Under the pieces are notes generated by a model. The model saw only the letters and a list, made by a program, of their open reading frames with translations, searched no databases and was not told the DNA's origin. A stretch of 64,000 bases of DNA from Bacteroidales bacterium (lineage in GTDB: Bacteria > Bacteroidota > Bacteroidia > Bacteroidales > UBA12077): positions 34,679 through 98,678 of the forward strand of contig JAHOYT010000002.1 in NCBI GenBank assembly GCA_019038645.1, written 5' to 3'. Numbering within the stretch: the first letter of the stretch is position 1; every line of letters begins with the position of its first letter. The position numbers and the translations under genes were made by a program. This document shows, in pieces, positions 25,256 through 41,902 of this stretch.

Positions 25256-25345
<90 letters not shown>

Positions 25346-25570: not shown

Positions 25571-25645
25571 CGGGGTGTAGCGTAGCCCGGTTATCGCGCC
25601 TGCTTTGGGAGCAGGAGGTCGCAGGTTCGAATCCTGCCACCCCGA
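25571..25645 (+). tRNA. tRNA-Pro (anticodon TGG)
   Basis: Acceptor CGGGGTG/CACCCCG. Anticodon arm CCTGC-TTTGGGA-GCAGG. T-arm GCAGG-TTCGAAT-CCTGC. Confidence 0.9.
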
Positions 25646-25647
25646 CG

Positions 25648-25804: not shown

Positions 25805-25838
25805 TAAAAAAGCCGATCAGCAAACGATCGGCTTTTTT
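25805..25838. terminator. Bidirectional intrinsic terminator; it ends buk on the minus strand and the tRNA-side transcript on the plus strand
   Basis: GCCGATC-AGCAAAC-GATCGGC hairpin flanked by an A-run upstream and a T-run downstream. Confidence 0.7.
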
Positions 25839-25864: not shown

Positions 25865-26935
25865 TTAATATTCAAGAGCCTCTTCCTGATTATCCAAAAC
25901 TCTGAATATACCTTCCGCTAATGCCTCCATTTCATTTTCGCCCGGGCATATATGAAATTCTGTAAGCGCACCGACATATTCTTTTAGGTCATTATTAAAT
26001 TTTTCGTTATATGCAATCCCACCGGTAATAACAATTGCCTGAGCTTTACATTTAGAAGCAGCATAGCATGCACCTATTTCTTTGGCAAGCTGGTACACGA
26101 AAGCGGAATAAATTAATTCTGCTTTTTTATCACCCTGCTCAACCATTTTTAATACTTCTCTTACATCTTCTGTTCCCAGATATGCTTTAAATCCGCTGTT
26201 TTGTGAAAAAAGTTTTATAACTTCGTCTTCCGGTTTGCTATAACACAATTTTATTACTCCCCGAAGAGGTAGAGCTCCTGCTCTGTTAGGTGTAAAAGGA
26301 CCCATTCCTAATAATCCATCATTTACGTCAATTATTTTGCCTCCTGTTACTAAAGAAACGGAGATACCCCCACCTAAATGAGCAATCACATAACACGATT
26401 TCTCAAATGGGATACTCTGTCGTAATGCCATTTTGCGTGCAGTAATTTTAATATTTAAAGTGTGTGCTCTTCCATCACGAATTATACCCGGAACACCAGA
26501 AATTTCTGCTACCGGACTTATGCTGCTTGTTGACACAGGATCCACAGTATAACTGTCTGACAAGCCAAATTCATCTTTTATATAATTTACCAGCAAACTA
26601 CCCAGGTTCGACGCGTGTTCTCCGTAAGTACCAGATTTTGCGTCACTTAAAAATGCCTGATTTATACGATAAGTTCCTCCCTTTATTGGTTTTACAATTC
26701 CACCTCTACCAACAACACCTATAACTTTAACTTTTGATTTTGAAAGATACTCGTTAATAAATGGCTTTAAATGCTCGTAACGATACTCTAATTGGTCAGC
26801 TATCTTCTCAAATTTGACTAATTCATTTTGAGGATGACTAATAGATTTAGAAATTAACTCTCCTTGCCTGGTATAGAATGCTATTTTCGTTGAGGTTGAA
26901 CCGGGATTTACAACAATTACTACTTCTTTATTCAT
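25865..26935 (-). CDS. buk: Butyrate kinase (canonical paralog)
   Basis: ASKHA motifs VVNPGSTSTKIA, AHLGGGISV, GMGPFTPNRAGALP and ITGGIAYN. 356 aa. Confidence 0.9.
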   Translation of the reverse strand: MNKEVVIVVNPGSTSTKIAFYTRQGELISKSISHPQNELVKFEKIADQLEYRYEHLKPFINEYLSKSKVKVIGVVGRGGIVKPIKGGTYRINQAFLSDAKSGTYGEHASNLGSLLVNYIKDEFGLSDSYTVDPVSTSSISPVAEISGVPGIIRDGRAHTLNIKITARKMALRQSIPFEKSCYVIAHLGGGISVSLVTGGKIIDVNDGLLGMGPFTPNRAGALPLRGVIKLCYSKPEDEVIKLFSQNSGFKAYLGTEDVREVLKMVEQGDKKAELIYSAFVYQLAKEIGACYAASKCKAQAIVITGGIAYNEKFNNDLKEYVGALTEFHICPGENEMEALAEGIFRVLDNQEEALEY

Positions 26936-27431
26936 ATTTTAAAATTAGGATGGAAATATACATAATAATTATAAATACTGCCATGTGTTTAATAATACTT
27001 TAATGTTTTTTTATGATATTTTAACTAAAAATTGATTTGATTCGGATTTCTTAATGTCCTTAAATATTTGCCGTACTTTCAGGACTAATAATTTGGTCAA
27101 TTCCAATATCATACAAAACAATACAATACGAATCATATTAGGACATTATTATTTGTGTTTTAAATTATATTTTATCTATTTTTAAGGATTAATTTATCAT
27201 TTTAATTCAGACAAAATTGTCTCTATAAATGATGAACAGGTTCTTTTAGGAATTAGTGCTGAGTTCGTGAAGCTAAAGCAGACTATGTTCAGTTAAAAAG
27301 AAAAATGGAGAAACTCACGTTTGATCATTATAATAAAACTGAGTGTATTTATGATAGAGCAGTTACGAATGATAAAACTTTGCACAATTAACAACAAATA
27401 AATATTCAGATAAACCTAAATATAAAAAACA

Positions 27432-28574
27432 ATGAACTTTGACTACACAGAAGAGCAATTAATGGCCCAACAATCAGCAAGAGACTTTGCACAAAGAGAG
27501 TTAATCCTGGATGTAATTGAAAGAGATACTAAAGCTGAATTTCCAACTGAACATGTAAAAAAACTAGCTGAACTTGGATTTCTTGGAATGCTGGTTGACC
27601 CTGCATATGACGGAACAGGTATGGATACCATTTCTTATGTTTTAGCACTTGAGGAAATTTCGAAAGTAGATTCCTCCGTTGCTGTTATAATGTCTGTAAA
27701 TAATTCTTTAGTAGCCTGGGGACTCGAAGAGTATGGAACTGAGGAACAAAAAGAAAAATATCTAAAGCCTTTAGCCAGAGGTGATAAAATCGGTGCATTT
27801 CTTTTATCTGAGCCAGAAGCAGGATCAGATGCTACTATGCAGCGTACGACAGCTGTTGATATGGGTGATCATTACCTTGTTAATGGTACTAAAAATTGGA
27901 TTACTAACGGTAATTCAGCATCTACTTATATTGTTATTGCTCAAACCGATCCTGAAAAAGGTCACAAAGGAATTAATGCATTGTTAGTTGATCGTCATGC
28001 CGAAGGTATTAGCCTTGGTCAGCATGAGGACAAGATGGGAATGAGAAGTTCTGATACACATTCTGTAATGTTTACTGATGTTAAAGTTCCGAAAGAGAAC
28101 CGACTTGGTGAAGATGGCTTTGGATTTAAATTTGCAATGAAAACGTTGGAAGGCGGAAGATTAGGAATAGCAGCTCAAGCATTGGGACTTGCTTCCGGAG
28201 CATACGAGATAGCTTTAAAATATTCTCAGGAGAGAAAAGCTTTTGGTAAAGAAATTATAAAACATCAGGCTATAGCTTTTAAATTAGCCGATATGGCAAC
28301 CGAGATTGAAGCTATGAGATTTTTATGCTTAAAAACCGCCTGGCTTAAAGATAATAATAGACCTTATGGTACTGAAAGTGCTATGGCAAAATTGTATTGT
28401 GCCGAAACAGCCATGAAAATCACTACTGAGGCAGTTCAGATTTTGGGTGGATATGGCTATGTTAAAGAATATCACGTGGAAAGATTAATGCGGGATGCCA
28501 AGCTCACACAAATATACGAGGGAACTTCAGAAGTTCAGAAAATTGTTATCTCAAGAGCTATTTCAAGCTTGTGA
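27432..28574 (+). CDS. Short-chain acyl-CoA dehydrogenase (butyryl-CoA dehydrogenase-like)
   Basis: 380 aa. ACAD motifs (LSEPEAGSD, GTKNWITNG, QILGGYGY, catalytic Glu in IYEGTSEVQ). Confidence 0.85.
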   Translation: MNFDYTEEQLMAQQSARDFAQRELILDVIERDTKAEFPTEHVKKLAELGFLGMLVDPAYDGTGMDTISYVLALEEISKVDSSVAVIMSVNNSLVAWGLEEYGTEEQKEKYLKPLARGDKIGAFLLSEPEAGSDATMQRTTAVDMGDHYLVNGTKNWITNGNSASTYIVIAQTDPEKGHKGINALLVDRHAEGISLGQHEDKMGMRSSDTHSVMFTDVKVPKENRLGEDGFGFKFAMKTLEGGRLGIAAQALGLASGAYEIALKYSQERKAFGKEIIKHQAIAFKLADMATEIEAMRFLCLKTAWLKDNNRPYGTESAMAKLYCAETAMKITTEAVQILGGYGYVKEYHVERLMRDAKLTQIYEGTSEVQKIVISRAISSL

Positions 28575-28713
28575 TAACAGTTAAATGAACCGATTATTGA
28601 TAATATAAGTTAATAATACTAATTATTATTTTTTAGTAAACATCTGTAAAAAATATTTTAATTAACCTTTTTTTAGGTTTTATATTTAAGTATTTAAAAA
28701 CGAATAAAAGCAA

Positions 28714-31700
28714 ATGATTCAACCCGATATTTATAAAGTCACAAATAATATTAGAATTGTAACTGCCACATCTCTTTTTGATGGACACGACGCTACGATT
28801 AACATTATAAGAAGAATAATACAATCAACGGGAGGTGAAGTAATACATCTCGGTCATAATAAATCTGTTGACGAAATAGTGAATTGTGCAATACAGGAAG
28901 ATGCACATGCTATTGCAGTTACCTCTTATCAGGGAGGACATATTGAATTTTATAAATATATGTTTGATTTATTAAAAGAGAAATCATGTGAACATATAAA
29001 AATATTTGGTGGTGGTGGCGGAGTTATTTTACCCGATGAAAAAATCGAACTGCTAAAATATGGGATTGCCGGAATATATTCTCCTGATGATGGCAGAAAT
29101 ATGGGATTGCAGGGGATGATAAATGATTTAATGCAAAAATCAGATTACCCGCTTGGTAATTCAGATATAAATTTAAAGAAAGTAAAATCTAAAGATCAAT
29201 ACGCAATAGCATCGCTGATATCAAAATCGGAAAATTATCCCGATCAGGCAAAAGATTATTTACAAACCATTGGTAAAGAAATAGCAAAATCAAAAACACC
29301 TATTGTTGGTATTACCGGAACAGGAGGAGCTGGAAAATCGTCTATTGTTGATGAAATAATCCGAAGATTTGTGGATTTATATCCTGATTTATCTATTGGA
29401 ATAGTATCTGTTGATCCTTCCAAACGAAAAAGCGGTGGTGCATTATTGGGTGATCGTATTAGAATGAACTCTATTAATTATCCTAATATTTATATGCGTT
29501 CGTTAGCGACCCGACAACAAAACCTTGCTTTATCGGCTAATGTAAAGGATGCGGTTGATATTCTTAAATATGCAAATTATGATATAATTATTTTAGAATC
29601 ATCCGGAATTGGTCAATCTGATACAGAAATAATTGATCAGAGCGATGTTTATTTTTATGTTATGACTCCGGATTACGGAGCAGCATCACAGCTTGAAAAG
29701 ATCGCTATGCTTGATTATGCTGATATCATCGCCTTAAATAAATTTGATAAACAAGGAGCTCTGGATGCGTTGCGAGATGTTAAAAAACAATATCAGCGAA
29801 ATAATTTATTATTTGAAACTCCTGTTGATGAAATGCCTGTTTACGGAACAATTGCTTCTCAATACAATAATGAGGGACTTAATAATTTATTTAAGAAGTT
29901 AATAAATATAATAAGTGCAAAAACAGGAGCCAGTTTTCCTGAAACAGATTATTCATTGAAGATTAGTCATAATGACCAGCAAGTAGTTCCAACTGGTAAA
30001 GTCAGATATCTTTCAGATATAGCTGATGCTATTCGAAATTACAATCTACATATTGATGAACAGGCTAAGATAGCAAACCGATGGCAGGCATTGGTTACCT
30101 CGGAAGAAGAGATAGAAACAGACAAAGGAGTTTCGAAGCAAATAGCAGATCGGATTACATTATTGAAGGATGAACTTAGCAAAGAAAGTATTAAGATAAT
30201 TGAGAACTGGGAGAGCAAAAAGAAAAAATATAAGGATGAGTATTATACTTATGAGGTTAGAGGTAAGTCAATTAAAGTTGAAACCCACATTGAATCTTTG
30301 TCTCATTCAAAAATTCCCAAAATTGCACTACCGTCTTATTCTTCATGGGGCGACATATTAAAATGGAATTTGAAAGAAAATGTGCCGGGAGAATTTCCAT
30401 ATGCGGCTGGTGTATTTCCTTTTAAGCGTGAATCGGAAGATCCAACACGAATGTTTGCAGGGGAAGGTGGTCCCGAACGAACTAATAAACGATTCCACTA
30501 TCTTTCTGAGGGACAAAAAGCAAAGCGTTTATCAACAGCATATGATTCGGTAACACTTTATGGTGCTGATCCGGATATAAGACCTGATATTTTGGGGAAA
30601 ATTGGCAATTCTGGTGTTTCTGTCGCTTGTTTAGATGATGCTAAGAAGCTTTATTCCGGTATCGATTTACTTGACCCTTCTACTTCTGTTTCAATGACCA
30701 TAAATGGTCCGGCTCCTTTAATGGTTGGTTATTTCATGAATACAGCTATTGATCAGAGTTGCGAAAAGTACATTATGGAGAATGGGCTCAAGGAAAAAGT
30801 CAAAAAGCAGATTGAAAAAATATATAAAGAAAAAGGAATTGAACGACCTGAGTACCAGGGCAAATTACCTAAATCAAATACTGGATTAGGATTATTCCTT
30901 CTTGGTATAACTGGCGATCAGGTTTTACCAAAGGATGTTTATAGCAAAATAAAAGAAGATACAATACACAGAGTAAGGGGAACCATTCAGGCCGATATTT
31001 TAAAAGAAGATCAGGCTCAGAATACCTGTATTTTCTCAACAGATTTTGCTCTAAAAATGATGGGTGATATTCAGGAGTATTTTATCGATAATACTGTTAA
31101 GAATTTTTATTCAGTATCTATTTCCGGATATCATATAGCTGAAGCAGGAGCTAATCCAATTACACAACTTGCTTTTACTTTGGCAAACGGATTTACGTTT
31201 GTTGAGTATTATCTTTCACGTGGAATGAAGATTGATGATTTTGCACCCAGCTTATCATTTTTCTTTTCAAATGGTCTTGATCCGGAATACTCAGTAATAG
31301 GAAGAGTTGCCAGAATCATATGGTCAAAAGCCATGAAGTATAAATACAAAGCCAACTCTTTATCTCAAAAACTAAAATATCATATTCAAACTTCAGGCAG
31401 ATCTCTGCATTCACAGGAAATAGAATTTAATGATATTAGAACTACTTTGCAGGCACTTTCAGGGATTTACGATAATTGTAATTCATTACATACAAATGCT
31501 TACGATGAAGCAATTACCACACCTACAGAAGAATCTGTGAGAAGAGCAATGGCTATTCAAATGATAATTAATCATGAATACGGATTGGCAAAAAACCAAA
31601 ATCCTTTGCAAGGATCATTTATTATTGATGAGTTAACAGAGCTTGTTGAGGAAGCAGTTTTGGTGGAATTTGACCGGCTCACAGATCGTGGTGGTGTATT

Positions 31701-32076
31701 AGGAGCAATGGAGTCTATGTACCAGAGAGGAAAAATTCAGGATGAATCGATTTATTATGAATCTCTAAAGCATAGCGGTGAACTTCCGATTATGGGAGTA
31801 AATACATTCTTGTCTTCTAAGGGCTCGCCAACTATTGTTCCAAAAGAAGTAATCAGAGCGACTGAAGAAGAAAAAAACTATCAAATTAAAAACTTAAAAA
31901 GCTTACATAAAATTAACGAAGGATTATCGGATAAAATCCTCGAAGATCTTAAACGAGCTGTTCTTGATAATAAAAATACATTTGAATACCTGATAGAAGC
32001 AACAAAATATTGTTCTATTGGGCAAATTACAAATGCATTGTACGAAGTAGGAGGACAGTACAGAAGAAACATGTAA
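28714..32076 (+). CDS. icmF: Fused isobutyryl-CoA mutase IcmF (B12-binding domain, MeaB-like G-protein, mutase TIM-barrel domain)
   Basis: 1120 aa. N-terminal B12 domain ([15 protein letters not shown]). Central P-loop [12 protein letters not shown] with NKFD. C-terminal methylmalonyl-CoA-mutase-family substrate domain. This domain order is the one described for IcmF. Confidence 0.85.
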
Positions 32077-32136
32077 GACAATTTGAAACTGATCGAATTA
32101 ATTTAGTAAATATTAAAAAACTGTAAATTCTTACCC

Positions 32137-33231
32137 ATGAAATATAAGATAGATTATTCTGCAGATAGCTTGATTGTTGTGATTAATCCAAGAACATTAT
32201 TTACGAAAGTCGGGGTTTACAATAATAAAAATCTTGTGTTTTTAAAAAAAATAAAACACAAAGAAGATGATCTGCATAAATTTTCAAAACTTGAAGATCA
32301 GACAGAATATCGAACAGATGTAATACTAAAGGAGTTGAAGGAAAATGATATTGATTTTGAAAAAATAAGAGTAATAATCAGTAGAGGAGGTTTGCTTCAA
32401 CCGGTAAAATCAGGTGTTTATTTAGTAGATGATAAGGTAAAGCAAGATCTCATGAACTCAGTACAGGGTACAGATATCGTTAACTTAGGAGGGCTGATAT
32501 CAGGAAGTATGGTAGCAAGTTTCCCAAATGCAAATGCCTTTATTGCAGATCCGGTTGTTGTGGATGAATATGATGAAATTGCAAAAATTACTGGTTTACC
32601 CGAGATTAAAAGAAGATCAATCTTTCATGCACTAAATCAAAAATATATAGCTGGCCGATATGCAAAATCTATTGACAAAGAGTATAAAGATTTGAATTTG
32701 ATTGTTGCTCATATGGGAACAGGAATAACAGTAGGTGCACACAAAAAAGGATGTGTAATAGATTCAAATATGGGTTATGATGGTGATGGACCGTTTTCGC
32801 CTGTTAGAGCAGGAAGCCTCCCTACAGGAGATTTAATAAGACTTTGTTTTAGTGGAAAGTATACCGAAGAAGAGCTTTTAAGAAAAGTTAGCGTAGAGGG
32901 TGGATTATATGCTCATTTTGGTACTTATAGTGGAATAGAAATTGATCGGAGAGTTACAGAAGGCGATAAAGAAGCAACTCTTGTTTTTGAAGCTATGGCA
33001 TATCAGATATCAAAAACTATTGGATCTATGTTTGTTGTATTGGAAGGAACTGTTGATGCAATTATTATTACAGGACCACTTGCCAATAGCACATGGTTAG
33101 TTCGTAAAATAGTTGAAAAGGTAGAGAAAATTGCACCGGTTTCCATTTATCCTGGATCTGACGATATAAAGACACTGGCTTTAAAAGGCCTCGCAGTATT
33201 ACATGGAGATGAAGATGTAAAAAAGTATTAA
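32137..33231 (+). CDS. Divergent butyrate-kinase paralog
   Basis: Collinear with Buk (AHMGTGITV, GDGPFSPVRAGSLP), but the N-terminal phosphate motif reads VINPRTLFTKVG and the adenosine motif reads ITGPLANS. Confidence 0.7.
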   Translation: MKYKIDYSADSLIVVINPRTLFTKVGVYNNKNLVFLKKIKHKEDDLHKFSKLEDQTEYRTDVILKELKENDIDFEKIRVIISRGGLLQPVKSGVYLVDDKVKQDLMNSVQGTDIVNLGGLISGSMVASFPNANAFIADPVVVDEYDEIAKITGLPEIKRRSIFHALNQKYIAGRYAKSIDKEYKDLNLIVAHMGTGITVGAHKKGCVIDSNMGYDGDGPFSPVRAGSLPTGDLIRLCFSGKYTEEELLRKVSVEGGLYAHFGTYSGIEIDRRVTEGDKEATLVFEAMAYQISKTIGSMFVVLEGTVDAIIITGPLANSTWLVRKIVEKVEKIAPVSIYPGSDDIKTLALKGLAVLHGDEDVKKY

Positions 33232-33286
33232 CCCAATTAAGCAGTCAAAAATCTACCTTTTAAATAATACAAAACAAAAAGTGTTG

Positions 33287-33781
33287 CTATTTTTTAGCAG
33301 CATTTTTTATTATTTCTTTAATATATTTATCGGGAACCTGAATAGTAATTACTTCACCCGTTGCGGTAACAACACCGTTTGCGAATACCTCCACATCAAC
33401 GGTAACCTTTTTCCCGCTAATCTCTTTAATTTTACCTCTTATCTCTAAAGTACAATCTATTGGTGTTGGTTTTACATATTTTACATTTAACGAGCCGGTT
33501 AAAAATCTGAAAGAAGGTTCTGTATCCATCTCTCTGTTTTCTTGTTTATACATAGCGGCCGCCGCCGAACCAGTTCCGTGGCAATCTATAAGTGAAGCAA
33601 TTAATCCACCATAGACAAAGCCAGGGACTGCAGTATGATATGGCTGAGGAGTGAATGTTGTTACTGTTTCATCACCATCCCAAACAGTTTTTATTTGATA
33701 TCCGTGTTCATTCAGACTACCACAACCATAGCAGTGACTTAAGTGATCAGGATAATAATCCTGAAATGCTTTTATATTCAT
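33287..33781 (-). CDS. PaaI-family hotdog-fold thioesterase with an N-terminal Cys-rich (zinc-ribbon-like) segment
   Basis: CYGCGSLNEHG near the N-terminus. Hotdog pattern (PGFVYGGLIASLIDCHG...LNVKYVKP). Confidence 0.65.
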   Translation of the reverse strand: MNIKAFQDYYPDHLSHCYGCGSLNEHGYQIKTVWDGDETVTTFTPQPYHTAVPGFVYGGLIASLIDCHGTGSAAAAMYKQENREMDTEPSFRFLTGSLNVKYVKPTPIDCTLEIRGKIKEISGKKVTVDVEVFANGVVTATGEVITIQVPDKYIKEIIKNAAKK

Positions 33782-34029: not shown

Positions 34030-35103
34030 ATGACGATAATGGAATTGAAAGAGATAGTTAAACACTTTATTTCAGGTAACACCATTAAGGATATTAGAAT
34101 ATTTGGTAACGGGCATATTAATACTACCTACAAGGTTACATTTGAGAATATTAGAGATGAATATATCTTACAAAAAATAAATACGAAGGTTTTTGAAAAT
34201 CCACAAATAATAATTCAAAATCATTTAAAGCTGCAGGAACATTTGTTATCCGCTAAATCAGATATTGAAATTCCACACTTAGAAAGTATTGGTATAAATC
34301 AATTTCTTTACAAAGATGACGATAAGAATCAATGGCGAATGATGAACTTTATAAAGGATTCGTATTCTGTTGAAGTAGTGGAAAATGAGAATCAATCTTA
34401 CGAAGCAGGTAAAGGGTTTGGATGGTTTCTAAAAGCTTGCTCAATAATAAATTCATCTGAATTACATGAAGCTATAAAGGACTTTCATAGCTTATCATTT
34501 AGAATTAATCAATTACATAAAGCAATTGAATATGATTTAGTCAATCGTGTTTCTAAAGCAGGTCAATTAATTAGTTTTTATAAAGAAAGAGAAAATGGCT
34601 TACTGGAAATCGAAAGTTCTTTTCAGAAAAATAAGATTCCACTGAGAGTTGTTCACAATGATACAAAGATCAACAATCTTTTATTCAGGAACGAAAGGGC
34701 TGTAGCAGTAATTGATTTAGATACTGTTGGACCTGGAGTTGTTGTATTCGATTATGGCGATGCGATTCGAACTATAACAAATACAGCTGCTGAAGATGAA
34801 AAGGATTTGAATAAAGTGAATTTTGATATAAAAATGTTTGAGTCATTTACAAAGGGATACCTTGAGAATGCAAGATCAATTTTAAATGTTAAGGAAAAAG
34901 ACTTGTTTTTACATGCTCCATTTTATATGACCTTTATAATGGGAATAAGATTCTTAACAGATTATATAAATGGAGATATTTACTATAAAACTGAATATGC
35001 TGAACACAATTTTGTGCGTACTTCTGTACAAAAAAGACTTGTCGAGCAAATAGAAACTAATAAAGATATTATAAAACAAATTATTGAAAGATATACAATC
35101 TAA
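34030..35103 (+). CDS. N-acetylhexosamine 1-kinase-like phosphotransferase (APH/NahK family)
   Basis: GNGHINTTYKV, IPLRVVHNDTKINNLLF, VIDLDTVGPG, AAEDEKDLNKVNF and RFLTDYINGDIYYKTEYAEHNFVRT follow the NahK pattern as I recall it. Confidence 0.6.
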   Translation: MTIMELKEIVKHFISGNTIKDIRIFGNGHINTTYKVTFENIRDEYILQKINTKVFENPQIIIQNHLKLQEHLLSAKSDIEIPHLESIGINQFLYKDDDKNQWRMMNFIKDSYSVEVVENENQSYEAGKGFGWFLKACSIINSSELHEAIKDFHSLSFRINQLHKAIEYDLVNRVSKAGQLISFYKERENGLLEIESSFQKNKIPLRVVHNDTKINNLLFRNERAVAVIDLDTVGPGVVVFDYGDAIRTITNTAAEDEKDLNKVNFDIKMFESFTKGYLENARSILNVKEKDLFLHAPFYMTFIMGIRFLTDYINGDIYYKTEYAEHNFVRTSVQKRLVEQIETNKDIIKQIIERYTI

Positions 35104-35130
35104 AGCTAAAACATCCCTAAAATTAATGTT

Positions 35131-36510
35131 ATGAAAAGGTTATTTATTTTACTTATTATTGCTGTAACTCTTACTAATTGTGATTTTCAGAATTCGAATA
35201 AAACGGAATTATTTAAAGCTCAACAAGTTTTTAAGGAAGATGAAAGGCCCATCGGGCAGCAAGATGTAATTGAATTAAGATGCGAACCGATTGATACGGT
35301 GCGAATGGCAATTATCGGATTGGGTATGAGAGGGTCAGGAGCTGTCTATCGTTACAACTTTATTGAAGGAGCTAAAATAGTTGCTCTTTGTGATGTTGTT
35401 CCTGAAAATGTTGAAAAAGCTCAGAATGCGCTGTTAGATGCGGACAAACCCAAAGCTGATGTTTATACTGATTCATTGGGATGGCAAGCAATTTGTGAAC
35501 GTGATGATATTGATCTTATTTATATATGTACTCATTGGGATTTACATACTCCAATAGCTGTTTATGCAATGGAGCACGGGAAACATGTTGCAACAGAAGT
35601 GCCTGCAGCATTAACAATTGATGAGTGTTGGCAATTGGTTAATACTGCTGAAAAAACACAACAACATTGCATGCAACTGGAAAATTGCAACTACGATTTT
35701 TTTGAAATGGCTACATTAAATATGGCTCAGAAAGGATTGTTTGGTGAGATTGTACATGGCGAAGGCGCGTATATTCACGATTTACGCTGGCTTAATTTTA
35801 TGGAAGAAGGTGGATACTGGAATATGTGGAGATTAAGGCATCTTGAAAAAGAAGATGGAAATACGTATCCGACTCATGGATTTGGACCCATATGTCATAT
35901 TATGAATATTCATAGAGGTGATAAAATGGATTATCTGGTTTCTGTGTCGGGTAATCAGTTTGGAATGACAGCTTATGCGAAAGAAAAATTTGGCGAAGAA
36001 TCTGACTATGCTAAAACAGAATATGCTAAGGGTGATATAAATACAACCATTGTTAAAACGAATAAAGGTAAAACAATTATGATTCAGCATGATGTTACAA
36101 GCCCAAGACCATATAGCAGGATTCATATGGTAAGTGGTACAAAGGGTTTTGCTCAAAAATGGCCCCGAAAAGGTATTGCTTTAGAGCCTAATGCTCATAG
36201 TTTTTTATCGGATGAAGAAATGGAAAAACTTCTGGTTGAATATGAACACCCGATAACAAAAGAAGTTGGAAAAAAAGCAAAAGAGGTAGGTGGTCATGGA
36301 GGAATGGATTTTATTATGGATTATAGATTAATTTATTGTTTACGAAACGGATTACCATTAGATCAGGATGTGTATGATGCTGCTGAATGGTCTGCCATTA
36401 TTGAACTTTCACAAATATCTGTTAAGAATCAGGGAATGCCCGTTAAAGTGCCTGATTTTACAAGAGGTGCATGGAATAAAGTAAACACGGTAACATATTT
36501 TACAAAGTAA
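35131..36510 (+). CDS. GH109-like NAD-dependent glycosidase (alpha-N-acetylgalactosaminidase family; Gfo/Idh/MocA fold), lipoprotein
   Basis: Lipobox LTNC. Rossmann motif IIGLGMRGSG. The ~460-aa length and overall pattern are typical of GH109. Confidence 0.65.
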   Translation: MKRLFILLIIAVTLTNCDFQNSNKTELFKAQQVFKEDERPIGQQDVIELRCEPIDTVRMAIIGLGMRGSGAVYRYNFIEGAKIVALCDVVPENVEKAQNALLDADKPKADVYTDSLGWQAICERDDIDLIYICTHWDLHTPIAVYAMEHGKHVATEVPAALTIDECWQLVNTAEKTQQHCMQLENCNYDFFEMATLNMAQKGLFGEIVHGEGAYIHDLRWLNFMEEGGYWNMWRLRHLEKEDGNTYPTHGFGPICHIMNIHRGDKMDYLVSVSGNQFGMTAYAKEKFGEESDYAKTEYAKGDINTTIVKTNKGKTIMIQHDVTSPRPYSRIHMVSGTKGFAQKWPRKGIALEPNAHSFLSDEEMEKLLVEYEHPITKEVGKKAKEVGGHGGMDFIMDYRLIYCLRNGLPLDQDVYDAAEWSAIIELSQISVKNQGMPVKVPDFTRGAWNKVNTVTYFTK

Positions 36511-36805: not shown

Positions 36806-39448
36806 GTGATTAAAAAGTGGCGTAGTTATTTGTTTCATCCTTTAATTCTGGGAATTATTTTAAGCGTTGTTGCAATTTTTATATTTGCAGCATACCTGCC
36901 AAAATATTATACAGAAATTATTGAGGAGTCTATGCTATTTAATAACGGAGAAATATATTTCTATGATCTCGATAATGATGGTAACAGCGAAAAAATCAAT
37001 TATTGTCACTACGATAAAATATTTCAGCCCACTTTATACTTGTATGATTCAGAAGATAATTTTAAAGCACTTTGGAATTTTTTCGAATCTCCGGTAAAGA
37101 ATAGCAGGATATATTCAGGCGATTACAATAACGATAGTATTAAAGAAATATTTGTTTTTACAGAAAAAGACGATTCAGTTTTTTTATATATACTTAATCC
37201 CGAAAATGATGCTGAGAATGTAATTCAAAGAGAGTATATAACAAGTATCACCGGAAATAAAGATATTTACAAAATATTATCAATAGGATTATTTGAGAGT
37301 AAACAAAAAAATGAAAAAGATTTTTTCTTTTCTATTGATGCAGGTTATCCGGACAATCCGGTTAAACTGTATTCGTTTAATATTTCCGGTAAATCTCTGA
37401 AATCTTCACCAAACATTAATGCAAAAATTAAAGCTCCTGTAATTGTTGACGATATTAATAATGATGGAATTGCCGAAGTGTTAATCTCAAATGAATCTGT
37501 AAATGTGCCGGGAAACGGCAGCACCGCTCAACTAATAGTGTTGGATAATAACCTTAATTATCTTTTTAATCCGGTTGGTTTTCAGGGTACAAGGTCAGAA
37601 TTAACAACTGATATTGTTAAAATAAACAATAAAAATTTTATTGCCGTATTAAATAGCGGGACCACAACCGAAAATACTTTTAATAATCTGATGTTGTACG
37701 ATATTTCCGGAAAAAGAATTCAGGAAAAAATAATTTCAGGAAAATCAAACCTGGAAATAATAGATAACTTAACTTATCATGATAATTTATTCTTATTTTC
37801 TGGCAAAAAGATTATCAGATATAATTCAGATTTTAAAAAAATAAAAAGCTTTTTAATTAGCAGAAAGGCAAAAGTTCAGTTTATTGGATCAGTAGATATT
37901 TCCAGCGATGGAAGACCTGAATTAATATTTAAAAATAACAATGAGTTAATTCTGGTAAATGAAAATTTACGGTTTAGTTCTAAATTAAATATTTCAGGCG
38001 AAGGTACATTGAACATTAGTATTTCTGAAAGTACCGAAAGGCATAATCAATTATCTGTTCAGCTTGGTGATAAATGGTATTTGATTGATTATTACAGGAA
38101 TGATGCTTTTTTTTATAATCAGATTCTTTATATTTCAATATTTGTAATTATTACATTCCTTACTTTTATTGTTTTTTCAATAGTAAATAGAAGAACGTTA
38201 ATTAGCGGAAAAATAAAAGATAAAAAATACAAAGAAATAGAAGAAAATATTGAAGACAAATTATTTGGATTAAAATCAAGACTGAGCGAAATAAAGAATG
38301 AATTCAAGGAATATTCTTATAACAAAGTTATTGATGAAATTGAAGATACTTTCGAAGAAGTAAAAACGATAACGAAAGAAATAAGAGGTAGTGCAGATCA
38401 CAAAGTTGATTTTAATAAAAGTCTTTCGGCATTAAGTAAAAGAAATGAAGACAGAGTAAATTTAAGTTACTCATTATTCCCTGAACAAGATTGGGGAAAA
38501 ACTGCTCCGGTAATAGAATTTAGTATTATTGAATTTTGCGATGGGTTATTCAGCAAACTTGATAAATCCACAGGCAGGATTAATATAAGTATTCAACTTA
38601 TTAACCACAGCGAATATATTAATGTATTAATTGAAGCTGAAGATTTTTATATAGAAAATAAGTCGTTGAGAGATAACAAGGATTTAATTAATATTTTAAA
38701 AGGTGTTAACGGTAAATATGACCTGGATACATTTTCCGGGTTTGGAACAGTATTTAATGTTGCTATTCCTCTTAAATTTAATAAAACTACTGAAAACAAT
38801 AAAGTTCAGGGGAAAATCAGGGTTATTCTTGCTGAAGATCATGAGGTATCACTTTTTGGTTTAATTTCATTATTTAAAACTAAAAACGATATTGAGATAA
38901 TTGGTACAGCTAAAAACGGAATGGAAGTACTCAAGATTCTTGAAACTAAAAAAACAGATATTGTTATAACCGATATTTCAATGCCGGGAATGGATGGTAT
39001 TGAATTATCCGAAAAACTGCAAAGCGACTTTCCTGATGTTAAGGTAATAGTATTTACAATGTATATGGAGAATTGGTTCGTTGAGCAACTGTTAAATTTT
39101 GGTGCAAAAGGTTTTGTGTCAAAAACCTCAAAAATTATTGAATTGCATGGTGCTGTTAAAAACGTCTATGCAGGGAATAACTATTATTGTCCACAATTTA
39201 AATCAAAATTCGGATTTAAGAATAAGAGTAATGGAAACGGAAATGGAAATCGACTTGACTCCTTAACAAAAGCAGAATTACTTATCATTAAATTTTACGC
39301 CGAAAATTTGACTAAAAATCAGATTGCTGAGAAAATGGACCTTAGTATGGAGATAACCGAATCGTTCATTGCTAATATATTATTAAAACTAAATGCCGGT
39401 GATGAAGAAGAAATTATCCGGATAGCCAGGAAACAAAAATTTATCTAA
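36806..39448 (+). CDS. Hybrid one-polypeptide regulator: FG-GAP/VCBS-like extracytoplasmic domain, TM helix, degenerate HK-like module, REC, LuxR-type HTH
   Basis: Two TM helices (~36836-36900 and ~38121-38190) flank a region with DxDxDG-type motifs (DLDNDGNSE, VDDINNDGIAE, DISSDGRPE). REC from 38819 (ILAEDH, ITDISMPGMDG, FTMY, KGFVSK). C-terminal LuxR HTH (LTKAELLIIKFYAENLTKNQIAEKM). GTG start. Confidence 0.7.
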   Translation: MIKKWRSYLFHPLILGIILSVVAIFIFAAYLPKYYTEIIEESMLFNNGEIYFYDLDNDGNSEKINYCHYDKIFQPTLYLYDSEDNFKALWNFFESPVKNSRIYSGDYNNDSIKEIFVFTEKDDSVFLYILNPENDAENVIQREYITSITGNKDIYKILSIGLFESKQKNEKDFFFSIDAGYPDNPVKLYSFNISGKSLKSSPNINAKIKAPVIVDDINNDGIAEVLISNESVNVPGNGSTAQLIVLDNNLNYLFNPVGFQGTRSELTTDIVKINNKNFIAVLNSGTTTENTFNNLMLYDISGKRIQEKIISGKSNLEIIDNLTYHDNLFLFSGKKIIRYNSDFKKIKSFLISRKAKVQFIGSVDISSDGRPELIFKNNNELILVNENLRFSSKLNISGEGTLNISISESTERHNQLSVQLGDKWYLIDYYRNDAFFYNQILYISIFVIITFLTFIVFSIVNRRTLISGKIKDKKYKEIEENIEDKLFGLKSRLSEIKNEFKEYSYNKVIDEIEDTFEEVKTITKEIRGSADHKVDFNKSLSALSKRNEDRVNLSYSLFPEQDWGKTAPVIEFSIIEFCDGLFSKLDKSTGRINISIQLINHSEYINVLIEAEDFYIENKSLRDNKDLINILKGVNGKYDLDTFSGFGTVFNVAIPLKFNKTTENNKVQGKIRVILAEDHEVSLFGLISLFKTKNDIEIIGTAKNGMEVLKILETKKTDIVITDISMPGMDGIELSEKLQSDFPDVKVIVFTMYMENWFVEQLLNFGAKGFVSKTSKIIELHGAVKNVYAGNNYYCPQFKSKFGFKNKSNGNGNGNRLDSLTKAELLIIKFYAENLTKNQIAEKMDLSMEITESFIANILLKLNAGDEEEIIRIARKQKFI

Positions 39449-40342: not shown

Positions 40343-41077
40343 ATGACATACAATACTCCTTTTCTCGATTCACGAAATTCTATTGATAAAAGCTGGAATG
40401 ATTTTTTAAGTCCTGATATTATTGAAGAAATAAAATCCATTGAAAGTGCAATAGTTAAATCCGGAAAAGATTTTACACCCGATATTCCAAATGTTTTAAG
40501 ATTCTTATGCACACCATTGCAAAGTGTAAAAGTAATTATAATCGGACAGGATCCGTATCCACAAAAGGGAGCAGCAACAGGAAGGGCTTTTGAAGTAGGA
40601 ACACTTAAATCGTGGAACGAAAAATATAGTAATATTTCATTAAAAAATATAATCAGGGCTATTTATTATGCCCATAAAAAGGTTTATCTCAAATACAGCG
40701 AAATAAAACCAAAGTTGGAGGTTGATTTTCAACTAAAGCCTCCATATGAGTTATTTGTAAATTGGGAGCAACAAGGTGTTTTATTATTAAATACTTCGTT
40801 TACCTGCGAAACAGGAAACTCCAACAGTCATGAAAAGCTATGGAAAAATTTTACCATTAAATTGCTGGAATATTTAGCAGGTATAAATTCTGATATAATA
40901 TGGTTTTTGTGGGGGAATAATGCAAAATCTATTGTCAACAACATTGAAATAAAAAATAAGATCGAATCAATGCATCCAATGATGTGTTACAATAAACCCG
41001 GAAGAGATGATGACTTTCTTTTTGGCAAAATAAATCCCTTTTTTGAAACAAAAGATCTTGTTAACTGGTTAGGTTGA
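40343..41077 (+). CDS. Uracil-DNA glycosylase, divergent family-1-like
   Basis: Collinear with UNG: GQDPYP (UNG has GQDPYH), GRAFEV, QGVLLLNTSFT, FLWGNNA and HPMMCY (UNG has HPSPLS). Confidence 0.65.
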   Translation: MTYNTPFLDSRNSIDKSWNDFLSPDIIEEIKSIESAIVKSGKDFTPDIPNVLRFLCTPLQSVKVIIIGQDPYPQKGAATGRAFEVGTLKSWNEKYSNISLKNIIRAIYYAHKKVYLKYSEIKPKLEVDFQLKPPYELFVNWEQQGVLLLNTSFTCETGNSNSHEKLWKNFTIKLLEYLAGINSDIIWFLWGNNAKSIVNNIEIKNKIESMHPMMCYNKPGRDDDFLFGKINPFFETKDLVNWLG

Positions 41078-41902
41078 TCTTTCATTTATGTAGTCTTCAA
41101 TAGATTTATTGTATAAACCTGAAATTTTTTGCAAAACCTGATTTTGAGTGTAAAATTCAAATGAATCAATATTATTTACCGGTAATATTTTTAATGATGT
41201 TCCACTTAAAAATGCCGAGTCCATTTCAGAAATTTCTGAAATGTGAATTTTTTTTTCTTTCAGTTTAATATTTTCAGATTTACATAATCTAATAATATTC
41301 AATCTTGTAATACCTTGTAAAACATCAGATTCTGGTGGGGTTATTAGTTCGTCATCTTTTATGAAAAAGACATTGGACCTACTGCCTTCAGTTATAAAAC
41401 CATCATTATCCTGTAAAATAACTTCAAAAAGTTTTTTCTCTGCTATTGTATCGTTAGCTCTTATTCTGGCTTCGGAATTTAAAATTTTCACTTGAGGATT
41501 AAGTCTTATTGCTTTACAAAACCCTGTCTTAACACCTTTTTTACATTCCTCTGAAGTTGGGAAATAATGTGGCGTAAAATAAATTAATAAATTCTTTTCC
41601 TTGTCACCATTTACAGTGTTAAACTGAACAATTATTTTTATTTTACCCCGAAGGATATTATTCTTTGTTATTAATTCTCCCGTTAAAGTTTCAAAATCAC
41701 AATAACTTTCATTAATAGAAAAATTTGAAATTTCAGATGATTTATACAATCGGTTAAGATGATTTTCAAGAAAAAGCGGAACACCATTCTCTATCCTGAT
41801 TACTTCATAAATAGAGATACCGTTTTTAAGAAACGAATCATCAAAATGATCTGATTTTATAAATTTAAAATTATGCAAATAAAAATTTCCTGAGCATTCC
41901 AT
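41069..41902 (-). CDS. Class IV aminotransferase-fold protein (branched-chain aminotransferase / aminodeoxychorismate lyase-like)
   Basis: Fold-type IV pattern (LENHLNRLYKS, ITEGSRSNVFFIKDDELITPP, VLQGITR). The 3' end overlaps the UDG gene by 9 nt in convergent orientation. Confidence 0.6.
   Translation of the reverse strand: MECSGNFYLHNFKFIKSDHFDDSFLKNGISIYEVIRIENGVPLFLENHLNRLYKSSEISNFSINESYCDFETLTGELITKNNILRGKIKIIVQFNTVNGDKEKNLLIYFTPHYFPTSEECKKGVKTGFCKAIRLNPQVKILNSEARIRANDTIAEKKLFEVILQDNDGFITEGSRSNVFFIKDDELITPPESDVLQGITRLNIIRLCKSENIKLKEKKIHISEISEMDSAFLSGTSLKILPVNNIDSFEFYTQNQVLQKISGLYNKSIEDYINERST

Follow-up and report, generated by a model that had tools for sequence, protein, structure and literature searches.

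The window analyzed here, the whole 64-kb stretch of DNA, carries a butyrate kinase gene (buk1) and, across an AT-rich divergent intergenic region, a genuine three-gene operon, acd-icmF-buk2, which is followed by a conserved convergent hotdog thioesterase gene (Table 1). This arrangement matches exactly, in its coordinates, the one described by an earlier sequence-only reading. The icmF gene lies 60 bp from the start of buk2. Where buk2 and the thioesterase gene converge, a terminator-like hairpin reaches into the 3′ end of the latter. Because a terminator-like hairpin and then two tRNA genes come after buk1, this gene is monocistronic, forming its own operon with no room for a ptb gene beside it. 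The 496-bp region presumably holds the promoters of both buk1 and acd-icmF-buk2; it contains no cobalamin riboswitch (zero Rfam family matches) and no block conserved with the related loci L003, L004, and L082.

Table 1. Features of the buk1/acd-icmF-buk2 locus (positions in the 64-kb window)
Feature	Position	Strand	Description
tRNA-Ser	25256-25345	+	past buk1 terminator-like hairpin
tRNA-Pro	25571-25646	+	past buk1 terminator-like hairpin
Hairpin, terminator-like	25806-25838	-	just past buk1 stop; 14-bp stem then T run
buk1	25865-26935	-	356 aa
Divergent intergenic region buk1/acd	26936-27431		496 bp, AT-rich
acd	27432-28574	+	380 aa; short-chain (butyryl-CoA type) acyl-CoA dehydrogenase
icmF	28714-32076	+	1120 aa; fused AdoCbl-dependent isobutyryl-CoA mutase with MeaB-like GTPase domain
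buk2 (Buk2*)	32137-33231	+	364 aa; butyrate-kinase-fold paralog, last operon gene
Hairpin, terminator-like	33276-33308	+	between convergent buk2 and thioesterase; 14-bp stem then T run
Thioesterase	33287-33781	-	164 aa; hotdog fold, 4HBT family; converges on buk2

IcmF scored 1689 bits against NF045497 (cut-off: 1500) and 1344 bits against Cupriavidus IcmF (4XC6), and a Pfam scan recovered the B12-binding, MeaB, and MM_CoA_mutase domains in that order. The B12-binding His25 (in DGHDA), the P-loop GTGGAGKSS (residues 202-210), and the specificity pair Phe581 and Gln769 (equivalent to F598 and Q742) are all kept. Acd contains three acyl-CoA dehydrogenase (ACAD) Pfam domains, with the catalytic Glu363 within a YEGT motif, and reached none of the equivalog cut-offs. 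Among solved structures, it scores highest against 4L1F (403 bits) and 5OL2 (398 bits), both EtfAB-dependent butyryl-CoA dehydrogenases, which rank above rat SCAD and well above isobutyryl-CoA dehydrogenase 1RX0 (258 bits). Both of these enzymes come from fermentative butyrate producers, whose butyryl-CoA dehydrogenases act reductively in electron-bifurcating complexes.

Both kinase-like proteins pass TIGR02707 (cut-off: 289 bits), with 371 bits for Buk1 and 434 bits for Buk2. The nucleotide motifs of Buk1 are all canonical (NPGSTSTK at 10, GEHASN at 105, HLGGG at 186, TGGIA at 304, and PGENE at 331) and, judged by its sequence, Buk1 is a canonical butyrate/branched-chain acyl kinase from a clade distant from Buk2, in line with the first assignment of this gene. 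In Carboxylicivirga, its ortholog is the first gene of a buk-vorGDAB-aminotransferase-ptb operon, and besides the window Buk1 adjoins acd-icmF only in L003, L004, and L082, from the closest relatives. Buk1 is probably a separate kinase of an amino-acid-fermentation module, acting after 2-oxoacid:ferredoxin oxidoreductase (VOR) and Ptb, and placed beside the acd-icmF-buk2 cluster in this lineage only. The earlier proposal of one kinase per isomer fares poorly, as the two proteins are only 32% identical and differ in history, with Buk1 in the VOR-ptb clade and the motifs of Buk2 rebuilt.

The AlphaFold model of Buk2 (pLDDT 91.6) superimposes on Thermotoga maritima Buk2 with a Foldseek TM of 0.91-0.93, and the protein falls into a distinct subclade of the family, named Buk2*. 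Here, the family-invariant PHOSPHATE1 loop NPGSTSTK is swapped for NP[RK]xxxT[KQR], and the PHOSPHATE2 and ADENOSINE glycines are changed too; the Buk2 of the window has NPRTLFTK for NPGSTSTK, GTDIVN for GEHASN, HMGTG for HxGGG, and TGPLA for TGG[LI]A, as well as PGSDD. All remaining family-invariant residues are kept, including the His and Arg aligning with His180 and Arg241 of acetate kinase (ACK) and ~45 further positions that are strictly conserved. The hallmark catalytic PHOSPHATE1 residues of ACK are Ser10, Ser11, Ser12, and Lys14, while its ADENOSINE Gly331, a contact of the alpha and beta phosphates, is shared by all ATP-dependent ACKs (PMC4390882, PMC5517563). In contrast, these residues are replaced in Buk2*, which makes an ordinary ATP-dependent kinase doubtful; with its nucleotide-phosphate motifs rebuilt, Buk2 departs from ordinary kinase paralogs.

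Next to icmF, Buk2* recurs well beyond this locus. Among the 69 surveyed icmF loci with downstream sequence, it is encoded directly downstream in 17 and, in another 4, no more than 10 kb away, and all 21 of these loci are from Bacteroidota, with no icmF-linked Buk2* in the Leptospira, Bacillaceae, Rhodocyclaceae, or Balneolaceae loci of the survey. The complete genome of Salinivirga cyanobacteriivorans has the identical layout, with Buk1 and Buk2 genes flanking icmF. The icmF-buk2* operon is therefore real and conserved in Bacteroidota, with an atypical Buk2-like partner, and the literature searched gave no description of an IcmF operon with a kinase, as the sequence-only reading had supposed. 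Directly upstream of icmF, acd is found in 16 of 76 surveyed loci. In relatives, the operon gains crotonase, Hbd, thiolase, EtfAB, and leucine-degradation (liu) genes, as in crt-hbd-acd-icmF-buk2* with a convergent thioesterase (L089, L090), in icmF-mccB-ech-mccA-ivd-hmgl-buk2*-TE (L085, L088), and in a 22-kb Marinifilum supercluster of crt, hbd, thiolase, acd, etfBA, an FeS/CCG oxidoreductase gene, icmF, liu genes, and buk2*. These additions indicate branched-chain acyl-CoA catabolism. They favor the breakdown of branched acyl-CoAs over a module devoted to acid formation.

The thioesterase matches the 4HBT hotdog family (PF03061; 35 bits), but its former label, "PaaI-type", holds only at that level, as no PaaI-specific NCBIfam model matched and its closest solved relative is 2PRX (179 bits; THEM4 is weak at ~27 bits). 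Its membership in the cluster is well borne out, since orthologs (171-330 bits) adjoin Buk2* in eight further loci (L003, L004, L005, L082, L085, L088, L089, and L090) spanning three operon layouts. Counting the window, the orthologous thioesterase follows Buk2* in 9 NPR-type loci, and an MBL-fold hydrolase follows it in 8 NPK-type loci (the L019 coordinate being ambiguous), i.e., in every locus of both groups with enough downstream room. Neither hydrolase follows Buk2* in L006 and L086, which belong to other groups and have downstream room, and the Marinifilum group has no thioesterase in the 0.8-1.2 kb past Buk2*.

A phosphotransbutyrylase gene is indeed missing from the window: no PF01515 domain turned up in a Pfam scan of all ORFs ≥120 aa, a genuine Ptb used as phmmer query had no match among six-frame ORFs ≥50 aa, and the best E-value from tblastn searches with four Ptb sequences was 0.28. 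Nor is ptb present within 10 kb of any hydrolase-paired Buk2*. It adjoins Buk2* only in one basal clade member (L031), while the canonical sister clade occurs in ptb-buk pairs (L087). However, another contig of the same sample (SRR14477300) carries a lone ptb, P0156, and matches the window in GC content (32.5% vs 32.2%) and tetranucleotide usage (correlation 0.989; within-window control range 0.983-0.993), so that Ptb probably acts in trans. This ptb is followed by a CN-hydrolase gene and relA/spoT, a synteny that recurs in relatives with Ptb 92% identical. On this circumstantial evidence, the contig very probably belongs to the same genome, and the connection between the CoA pool and the kinases, previously called unclear, is largely explained.

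Taken as a whole, the explanation we prefer, at about an even chance (~50%), is a catabolic module with phosphotransfer by Buk2*, Ptb in trans, and Buk1 separate. The acd-icmF-buk2* operon would be part of a Bacteroidota module for branched short-chain acyl-CoA catabolism, in which IcmF would convert isobutyryl-CoA derived from valine or free isobutyrate into butyryl-CoA and Acd, as a butyryl-CoA-dehydrogenase type, would form crotonyl-CoA. Crotonase, Hbd, and thiolase, which relatives encode within this operon and this genome presumably carries elsewhere, would finish the route to acetyl-CoA. The window itself shows no crt, hbd, thiolase, or etf, only acd, icmF, and buk2* being clustered, and the catabolic direction is therefore suggested by the extended operons of relatives. 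It is consistent with the retained IcmF residues and the affinities of Acd, and in syntrophs, isobutyrate is known to be isomerized in a B12-dependent step and then beta-oxidized (PMC5017805). Buk2* most likely remains a phosphotransferase, adding phosphoryl groups to a short (branched) carboxylate or taking them from it, as its invariant residues, modeled Buk fold, and ptb-paired basal member suggest, and it would join the free-acid pool to the CoA pathway via acyl-phosphate, exchanged with acyl-CoA by the stand-alone Ptb. Because the nucleotide side of the site is rebuilt, ATP should not be taken for granted as the phosphoryl partner of Buk2*. The thioesterase probably serves as a relief valve, freeing CoA from accumulating or dead-end isomers. 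Against this explanation, a hydrolase gene rather than ptb consistently follows Buk2*, which a simple Ptb-in-trans scheme leaves unexplained, and the nearest solved relatives of Acd are from fermentative butyrate producers. The NPK-type loci also have AMP-forming acyl-CoA synthetase or Pat-like genes close by, so acid activation there may dispense with Buk2*.

It is possible, though unlikely, that Buk2* is an active acyl-phosphate phosphotransferase that dispenses with ATP/ADP, its partner being Pi/PPi as in Entamoeba acetate kinase (EhACK) or another compound, and that it feeds a PPi economy in acyl-CoA catabolism. Such a change would fit the clustering of replacements on the nucleotide side (PHOSPHATE1, PHOSPHATE2, and ADENOSINE), the retention of the other invariant residues with the His180 and Arg241 equivalents among them, and the new Arg/Lys conserved in the PHOSPHATE1 loop of 84 of the 111 nearest homologs. 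In the PPi-dependent EhACK, Gly331 is replaced by Gln or Asp and Asn211 by Thr (PMC4390882, PMC5517563), and both positions are altered in Buk2* as well (Pro314 and Thr195, respectively, in the Buk2 of the window, by alignment to TdcD). Yet the analogy is partial. Across Buk2*, the first position is Pro, Asp, Glu, Ala, or Ser, with Gly kept in some members, and the second is Thr, Ser, or Asn, and Ptb would still be needed.

We give less credence to a fermentative exit module for straight and branched C4/C5 acids, in which Buk1 and Buk2 would each serve one isomer as ordinary ATP-yielding kinases and the thioesterase would be a non-ATP exit. Marinilabiliales are fermenters, both kinases pass the equivalog cut-off and flank icmF here and in Salinivirga, and Acd resembles the dehydrogenases of butyrate fermenters. 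In Clostridia, moreover, icmF beside a CoA transferase gene is linked to isobutyrate production (PMC7764203). Still, the adjacency of Buk1 is limited to the closest relatives, its ortholog elsewhere sitting in a VOR-ptb operon, Buk2* lacks the canonical ATP-phosphate motifs, and its operons in relatives hold the irreversible, catabolic methylcrotonyl-CoA carboxylase and HMG-CoA lyase as well as EtfAB and the FeS/CCG oxidoreductase.

Slimmer again are the chances that Buk2* is a non-catalytic or regulatory paralog (a ligand sensor or a partner of IcmF, the hydrolase, or a canonical Buk) that no longer binds nucleotide but has kept its fold and acid site. The PHOSPHATE1 Gly and Ser/Thr residues, nearly universal in ASKHA proteins, are gone, a canonical Buk1 lies next door in this lineage, and nucleotide-free ASKHA paralogs that partner active ones exist, e.g., TsaB/YeaZ. 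However, the strict conservation of the aligned catalytic residues and ~45 invariant positions argues otherwise, most carriers have no nearby Buk1, and conservation extends to the replacing motif (NPRxx[FY]T[KQ]), which looks like changed function, not decay.

Least probable of all is a Ptb-independent link from acyl-CoA to acid or acyl-phosphate formed by Buk2* and the adjacent hydrolase, e.g., through a hotdog acyl-enzyme intermediate resolved by phosphate or CoA, for which we know of no precedent: the hydrolase-paired loci, none with ptb within 10 kb, would suit it, but such unusual phosphorolytic chemistry is unlikely to be common to two unrelated hydrolase folds, the MBL-fold protein is nearest to YtnP-type lactonases, not thioesterases, and a lone ptb is available in this lineage. 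The NPK-type loci also have AMP-forming acyl-CoA synthetase or Pat-like genes close by, so acid activation there may dispense with Buk2*.

The six-frame ORF list reproduced exactly the gene order of the sequence-only reading: a canonical butyrate kinase gene (buk1) diverges from acd, icmF and a second kinase gene (buk2), and a convergent thioesterase gene follows. On the 3′ side of buk1 we found a terminator-like hairpin and then genes for tRNA-Ser and tRNA-Pro, and a hairpin also lies 3′ of buk2. Both tRNA genes mark the boundary of the buk1 transcription unit, and together with the hairpins they exclude an operon shared by either kinase with a phosphotransbutyrylase gene (ptb) just beyond the window. 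The divergent leader contained no cobalamin or other riboswitch, as the two tRNAs were the sole Rfam matches; it showed no alignment, apart from AT-richness, with the corresponding region of the three closest relatives (L003, L004 and L082), and a sigma-70 promoter scan was uninformative (49 sites versus 41 expected).

Features of the butyrate kinase/IcmF locus and other genes of interest in the window
Feature	Position	Strand	Remarks
dihydrolipoamide-dehydrogenase-like gene	5516-6907		
tRNA-Ser(gct)	25256-25345		in 696-bp gap between FKBP/TPR gene and buk1
tRNA-Pro(tgg)	25571-25646		in 696-bp gap between FKBP/TPR gene and buk1
buk1	25865-26935	−	six-frame ORF list
gap buk1/acd			496 bp, divergent intergenic
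acd	27432-28574	+	six-frame ORF list; three ACAD domains
icmF	28714-32076	+	six-frame ORF list; NF045497
buk2	32137-33231	+	six-frame ORF list; TIGR02707
thioesterase gene	33287-33781	−	164 aa; 4HBT-family hotdog
APH-family phosphotransferase and GH109/GFO-type oxidoreductase genes	34030-36510	+	357 aa and 459 aa; after thioesterase gene
FG-GAP/receiver/HTH protein gene	36806-39448		880 aa
class IV aminotransferase gene	41069-41902	−	branched-chain or D-amino-acid type
Na+:alanine symporter gene	46635-48353		

The window has a GC content of 32%, and its proteins match those of uncultured Bacteroidales of Marinilabiliales/Salinivirgaceae type. We surveyed 80 genome loci with an IcmF most similar to that of the window, using naively called ORFs searched with the window proteins. 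A Buk2-type gene lies directly downstream of icmF in 17 of the 69 loci having downstream sequence and within 10 kb in four others; all 21 loci belong to Bacteroidota, chiefly Bacteroidales/Marinilabiliales, and no such gene was found near icmF in Leptospira, Bacillaceae, Rhodocyclaceae, Balneolaceae or the other loci surveyed. The icmF-buk2* linkage, on whose presence in relatives the sequence-only reading hinged, is therefore genuine (Buk2* denotes the motif-remodelled Buk subclade that includes window Buk2, with NPR-type and NPK-type subgroups named after the PHOSPHATE1 loop). It extends to cultured Salinivirga cyanobacteriivorans, whose complete genome (CP013118) shows the window arrangement, with a divergent buk1 as well as the thioesterase gene. 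In 16 surveyed loci acd is directly upstream of icmF; by contrast, a buk1 neighboring the cluster was confined to L003, L004 and L082, the closest relatives.

Three layouts were observed: crt-hbd-acd-icmF-buk2* with a convergent hotdog thioesterase gene (L089 and L090); icmF-mccB-ech-mccA-ivd-hmgl-buk2*-thioesterase (L085 and L088); and, in Marinifilum, yebC-crt-hbd-thiolase-acd-etfB-etfA-FeS protein-CCG protein-icmF-mccB-ech-mccA-atuA-ivd-buk2*. The last (L011) brings a YebC-like regulator together with a full butyryl-CoA beta-oxidation set, EtfAB, an FeS/CCG oxidoreductase and leucine-degradation (liu) genes; in Marinifilum sp. D714 it spans 22 kb (L011, 280-22512), with all genes co-directional. 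Four NPK-type loci (L015, 5494-8178; also L018, L019 and L043) encode, a few hundred bp upstream of acd, an ADP-forming acyl-CoA-synthetase-like protein of 894 aa that carries a fused GNAT domain (Pat-like protein acyltransferase), and an AMP-forming acyl-CoA synthetase gene lies 7-11 kb upstream of buk2* in L007, L009, L014 and L043.

Window IcmF scored 1,689 bits against NF045497 (cut-off, 1,500). It comprises, in order, the B12-binding (PF02310), MeaB GTPase (PF03308) and mutase barrel (PF01642) domains, and retains the B12-binding His25 and the GTPase P-loop at 202-210. Its Phe581 and Gln769 occupy the positions of F598 and Q742 in 4XC6, the Phe/Gln pair that sets substrate specificity and is Tyr/Arg in methylmalonyl-CoA mutase. 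The three-domain fusion, the His, the P-loop and the Phe/Gln pair are common to IcmF of Cupriavidus metallidurans and Geobacillus kaustophilus (4XC6 and related structures; 1,344 bits), but the gene neighborhoods differ from the window: icmF follows two acd genes in Bacillaceae loci and has neither acd nor buk within 10 kb in Rhodocyclaceae loci, and Buk2* and a hydrolase accompany icmF in Bacteroidota loci only. Elsewhere in the survey, the IcmF match is ~5 kb long in an Aneurinibacillus locus (L041, 9980-14997) and a Thermoactinomycetaceae MAG (L044, 9845-14725), with the N-terminal B12 part 0.6-0.8 kb away from the remainder, which could be due to an insertion, to an intein or to splitting of the gene. 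In a Draconibacterium MAG (L025, 2180-5600), icmF occupies two overlapping ORFs with a break near the 5′ end, for which either a frameshift or an assembly error may account.

Window Acd has three ACAD domains, with the catalytic Glu in a C-terminal YEGT motif, and is most similar to Bcd/SCAD; its nearest solved relatives are butyryl-CoA dehydrogenases and not isobutyryl-CoA dehydrogenase. Its substrate preference can only be predicted, since it fell below every NCBIfam equivalog cut-off (top model, AcrC; 447 bits versus 640). The cluster family reads as one for the catabolism of acyl-CoAs derived from valine and leucine, or of the free acids, because methylcrotonyl-CoA carboxylase, HMG-CoA lyase, thiolase and Etf with the FeS/CCG oxidoreductase are enzymes of oxidation, and the window Acd fits this reading through its closest solved relatives. 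Enzymes of the IcmF family use AdoCbl and GTP to interconvert isobutyryl-CoA with butyryl-CoA and isovaleryl-CoA with pivalyl-CoA; here IcmF is predicted to convert isobutyryl-CoA to butyryl-CoA, which would feed ordinary beta-oxidation.

The thioesterase had been described as PaaI-type. A convergent hotdog thioesterase of the 4HBT family is indeed encoded (generic PF03061, 35 bits, with weak YbgC-type NCBIfam hits), but no PaaI-specific model matched, and the best solved relative is the uncharacterized 2PRX. In every NPR-type layout, the thioesterase encoded next to Buk2* belongs to one orthologous group (171-330 bits pairwise, with a common CYGCG...YGG...DCH pattern). The NPK-type subclade lacks the hotdog gene; in eight loci a gene for an MBL-fold hydrolase (~280 aa) lies 15-132 bp behind buk2*. 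This protein is closest to a YtnP-type lactonase model, though under its cut-off, so its assignment as a thioesterase is unsupported. In both main subclades buk2* is thus followed by a hydrolase gene, whether of the hotdog or the MBL fold. Neither kind follows buk2* in L006 or the stand-alone L086, and no thioesterase was found in the short stretch downstream of buk2* in the Marinifilum group. A CoA-releasing safety valve would be the conservative reading of the pairing.

The sequence-only reading had seen no ptb in the window, and our searches upheld this, pseudogenes included. Specifically, the PTA_PTB domain (PF01515) did not turn up in a Pfam scan of all ORFs of 120 aa or more, phmmer with a real Ptb as query gave no match, and tblastn with four Ptb sequences reached a best E-value of 0.28; phmmer and tblastn rule out a small ORF or a pseudogene. 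Among the surveyed loci none has ptb within 10 kb of icmF except L031, the basal locus that is also the sole exception to the lack of ptb adjacent to Buk2*. A Ptb homolog (P0156) was found on a contig from the window's own sample (SRR14477300), with a GC content of 32.5% (window, 32.2%) and a tetranucleotide correlation of 0.989 to the window (control chunks within the window, 0.983-0.993). This ptb stands alone, in the order Fe-S protein gene, ptb, CN-hydrolase gene, relA/spoT. Relatives with a Ptb 92% identical to P0156 repeat this gene order and have no buk within 10 kb of it. A single orphan Ptb serving the kinase or kinases in trans is the most economical answer, the assignment of P0156 to the window's genome being circumstantial. 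The best 120 Ptb homologs did not include a Ptb from S. cyanobacteriivorans. The orphan ptb is followed, at a distance of a few kb and in conserved synteny, by genes for a second small hotdog protein (FlK/4HBT, 129 aa; L091, 7214-7603; L092, 17350-17739) and a flavodiiron-like protein.

P0156 is of the VOR-operon type: it shares 75% identity with the Carboxylicivirga Ptb but only ~42% with the Ptb proteins of ptb-buk pairs. In the Carboxylicivirga operon, a Buk1 ortholog comes first, followed by four 2-oxoacid:ferredoxin oxidoreductase (VOR) subunits, an aminotransferase and ptb, which is the classical path from branched-chain amino acid to acyl-CoA, acyl-phosphate and acid. For several further Buk1 orthologs and Ptb homologs, identical lengths of the longest contig suggest shared contigs as well. 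The two Ptb clades, ~42% identical, differ in company: one occurs with Buk1-type kinases and VOR (L083 and L091), and members of the other are closely paired with buk genes from the canonical group that is sister to Buk2* (L087 and L031).

We propose that acd-icmF-buk2* acts as a catabolic funnel from isobutyryl-CoA through butyryl-CoA to crotonyl-CoA. Buk2* would tie in the free-acid pool through acyl-phosphate, with Ptb acting in trans; the thioesterase would serve as a relief valve; and Buk1 would be a member of the VOR fermentation module that was recently juxtaposed. We give this model as a whole a probability of about 50%, and its weakest step is the activity of Buk2*.

The two window kinases (32% identical) are not equivalent. 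Buk1 scored 371 bits against TIGR02707 (cut-off, 289) and all its motifs are canonical (NPGSTSTK, HLGGG and TGGIA). Window Buk2 scored 434 bits against the same model, and its AlphaFold model (pLDDT, 91.6) superimposes on Thermotoga maritima butyrate kinase 2 (TmBuk2; 1SAZ and 1X9J) with a TM of 0.91-0.93, so that its predicted fold is intact. It resembles TmBuk2 in fold, in sequence (~43% identity) and in all non-nucleotide invariant residues, but has NPRTLFTK, GTDIV, HMGTG, TGPLA and DD in place of NPGSTSTK, GEHAS, HMGGG, TGGLA and NEE. Its PHOSPHATE1 loop is therefore not the canonical one of the TIGR02707 family; NPGSTSTK is exact in 84 of 150 Buk-family representatives, with Gly kept in most of the variants listed.

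Comparison of 23 Buk2* members (20 from icmF-containing loci) with 70 canonical sequences revealed NP[RK]xxxT[KQR] at PHOSPHATE1, with the G-S-T-S stretch missing in all 23. Of the residues that never vary in canonical Buks, those altered in Buk2* are five in PHOSPHATE1, His104 and Ser106 (T. maritima numbering), the central PHOSPHATE2 Gly, the second Gly of the ADENOSINE TGG motif and, in part, Glu334, besides a conservative change of one Ile to Val/Leu just ahead of the PHOSPHATE1 loop. The other ~45 family-invariant positions are retained, and the acyl- and phosphoryl-site residues (R50, R74, D128, H154, H182 and R214 of TmBuk2) are each kept in at least 21 of the 23. Of the 111 nearest Buk2 homologs with a readable motif, 84 carry Arg in place of the PHOSPHATE1 Gly, usually with Phe/Tyr three residues on; since this replacement itself recurs, the motif change does not look like decay.

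By alignment with acetate kinase (ACK) via Salmonella propionate kinase (TdcD), His164 and Arg224 of window Buk2 correspond to His180 and Arg241, and Thr195 (PHOSPHATE2) and Pro314 (ADENOSINE) to Asn211 and Gly331. Across the 23 members, the Gly331 equivalent is D/E/P/N or in some Gly, and the Asn211 equivalent (Gly in Buk) is N/T or in some Gly; Ala and Ser variants also occur at these positions among the nearest Buk2 homologs. In ACK, the PHOSPHATE1 residues are hallmark catalytic residues, and Gly331, which touches the alpha and beta phosphates, is kept in all ATP-dependent enzymes and replaced solely in the PPi-dependent Entamoeba ACK and putative bacterial relatives, where Asn211 is altered too (PMC4390882, PMC5517563). 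The conserved acyl- and phosphoryl-site residues argue for catalysis by Buk2*, while the rebuilt nucleotide loops argue against ordinary use of ATP.

In a rough neighbor-joining tree without support values, Buk2* is monophyletic and Buk1 lies far off; the sister group comprises canonical Bacteroidota Buks of ptb-buk pairs (L087), and a ptb-linked intermediate with the loop NPVTQSTQ (L031) is basal. Buk2* might define a subfamily marked by NP[RK]xxxT[KQR] that descended from ptb-linked Bacteroidota Buk, lost its ptb partner and ATP-phosphate loops, and now works with IcmF and a dedicated hydrolase by non-ATP chemistry, and not by ATP-dependent acid phosphorylation. Candidate chemistries would be PPi/Pi-dependent acyl-phosphate turnover and Ptb-independent coupling to acyl-CoA; we hold this reading only tentatively and at well below even odds. 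Five Buk-family representatives of 720-790 aa with a C-terminal kinase (P0258, P0268, P0286, P0290 and P0333) suggest natural fusions, possibly with Ptb as partner.

A different phosphoryl partner in place of ATP would accommodate the rebuilt loops, and the PPi-dependent ACK of Entamoeba histolytica offers a precedent within the Ack/Buk family for altered Gly331 and Asn211 with ATP no longer used (PMC5517563); that enzyme belongs, however, to a different subfamily (ACK), and we consider this alternative unlikely. The sequence-only reading had guessed at a module for making or consuming C4/C5 acids with one kinase per isomer, which amounts to a two-kinase fermentative exit. Both kinases exceed the butyrate-kinase cut-off, but the non-equivalence of the two kinases and the oxidation enzymes of the cluster family make it distinctly improbable. 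Loss of the G-S-T-S stretch might also mark Buk2* as a non-catalytic paralog, which the retained active-site residues render more improbable still. A Ptb-independent pairing of Buk2* with the hydrolase, in keeping with their recurrent proximity, has the slightest chance of all.

The funnel can be compared with several known systems. The clusters of Bacillus subtilis (ptb-bcd-buk-lpdV-bkd) and Enterococcus faecalis (ptb-buk-bkd), and the Carboxylicivirga VOR operon, whose kinase is the ortholog of window Buk1, have a Buk-family gene in a branched-chain acyl-CoA operon, as here; in the window, by contrast, ptb is neither in nor near the operon, IcmF is present, and Buk2* is without canonical ATP motifs. 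The conversion of isobutyryl-CoA to butyryl-CoA with subsequent beta-oxidation is already accepted for syntrophic isobutyrate degraders such as Syntrophothermus lipocalidus, which employs an isobutyryl-CoA mutase (PMC5017805). The logic is the same, namely B12-dependent isomerization followed by Acd, crotonase, Hbd and thiolase, to which the Marinifilum relative adds EtfAB and the FeS/CCG oxidoreductase. However, Syntrophothermus has split IcmA/B, a separate MeaB and an adenosyltransferase in a cluster without a kinase, whereas the window has a fused IcmF joined to Buk2* and a thioesterase. In clostridial isobutyrate producers, a putative IcmF adjoins a CoA transferase, read as isobutyrate formation (PMC7764203); IcmF is again tied to an enzyme connecting acyl-CoA and free acid, but in the window the connection is a Buk-like protein with a thioesterase in a catabolic context.

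Every part belongs to a known family, and B12-dependent isobutyrate isomerization is known. No paper that we found describes the conserved linkage of IcmF with a Buk-like protein and a hydrolase in Bacteroidota, its embedding in beta-oxidation and leucine-degradation operons, or the motif-remodelled Buk subfamily. IcmF is well studied as an enzyme, and its physiological role is described for few organisms in the accessible literature; the present loci link it to entire beta-oxidation and leucine-degradation operons in marine and sediment Bacteroidota, which suggests a B12-dependent route by which abundant protein degraders oxidize valine or isobutyrate via butyryl-CoA. Buk2* is annotated as butyrate kinase everywhere, yet it is without the loop by which the whole ASKHA superfamily holds the ATP phosphates, and keeps the remainder of the active site. 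If it is no ATP kinase, predictions of butyrate synthesis that count buk genes overcount in these taxa, and a new phosphotransfer or coupling reaction would await description. Cultured, genome-sequenced carriers include S. cyanobacteriivorans, with a complete genome, and Marinifilum, represented here by contigs of draft assemblies.

Of the further genes of the window, the dihydrolipoamide-dehydrogenase-like gene, the class IV aminotransferase gene and the Na+:alanine symporter gene could serve amino-acid catabolism but are unlinked to the operon. The APH-family phosphotransferase and GH109/GFO-type oxidoreductase genes stand beside the cluster in no relative, and the 880-aa protein has an unusual architecture in which FG-GAP repeats are joined to a response-regulator receiver and to an HTH of LuxR type.
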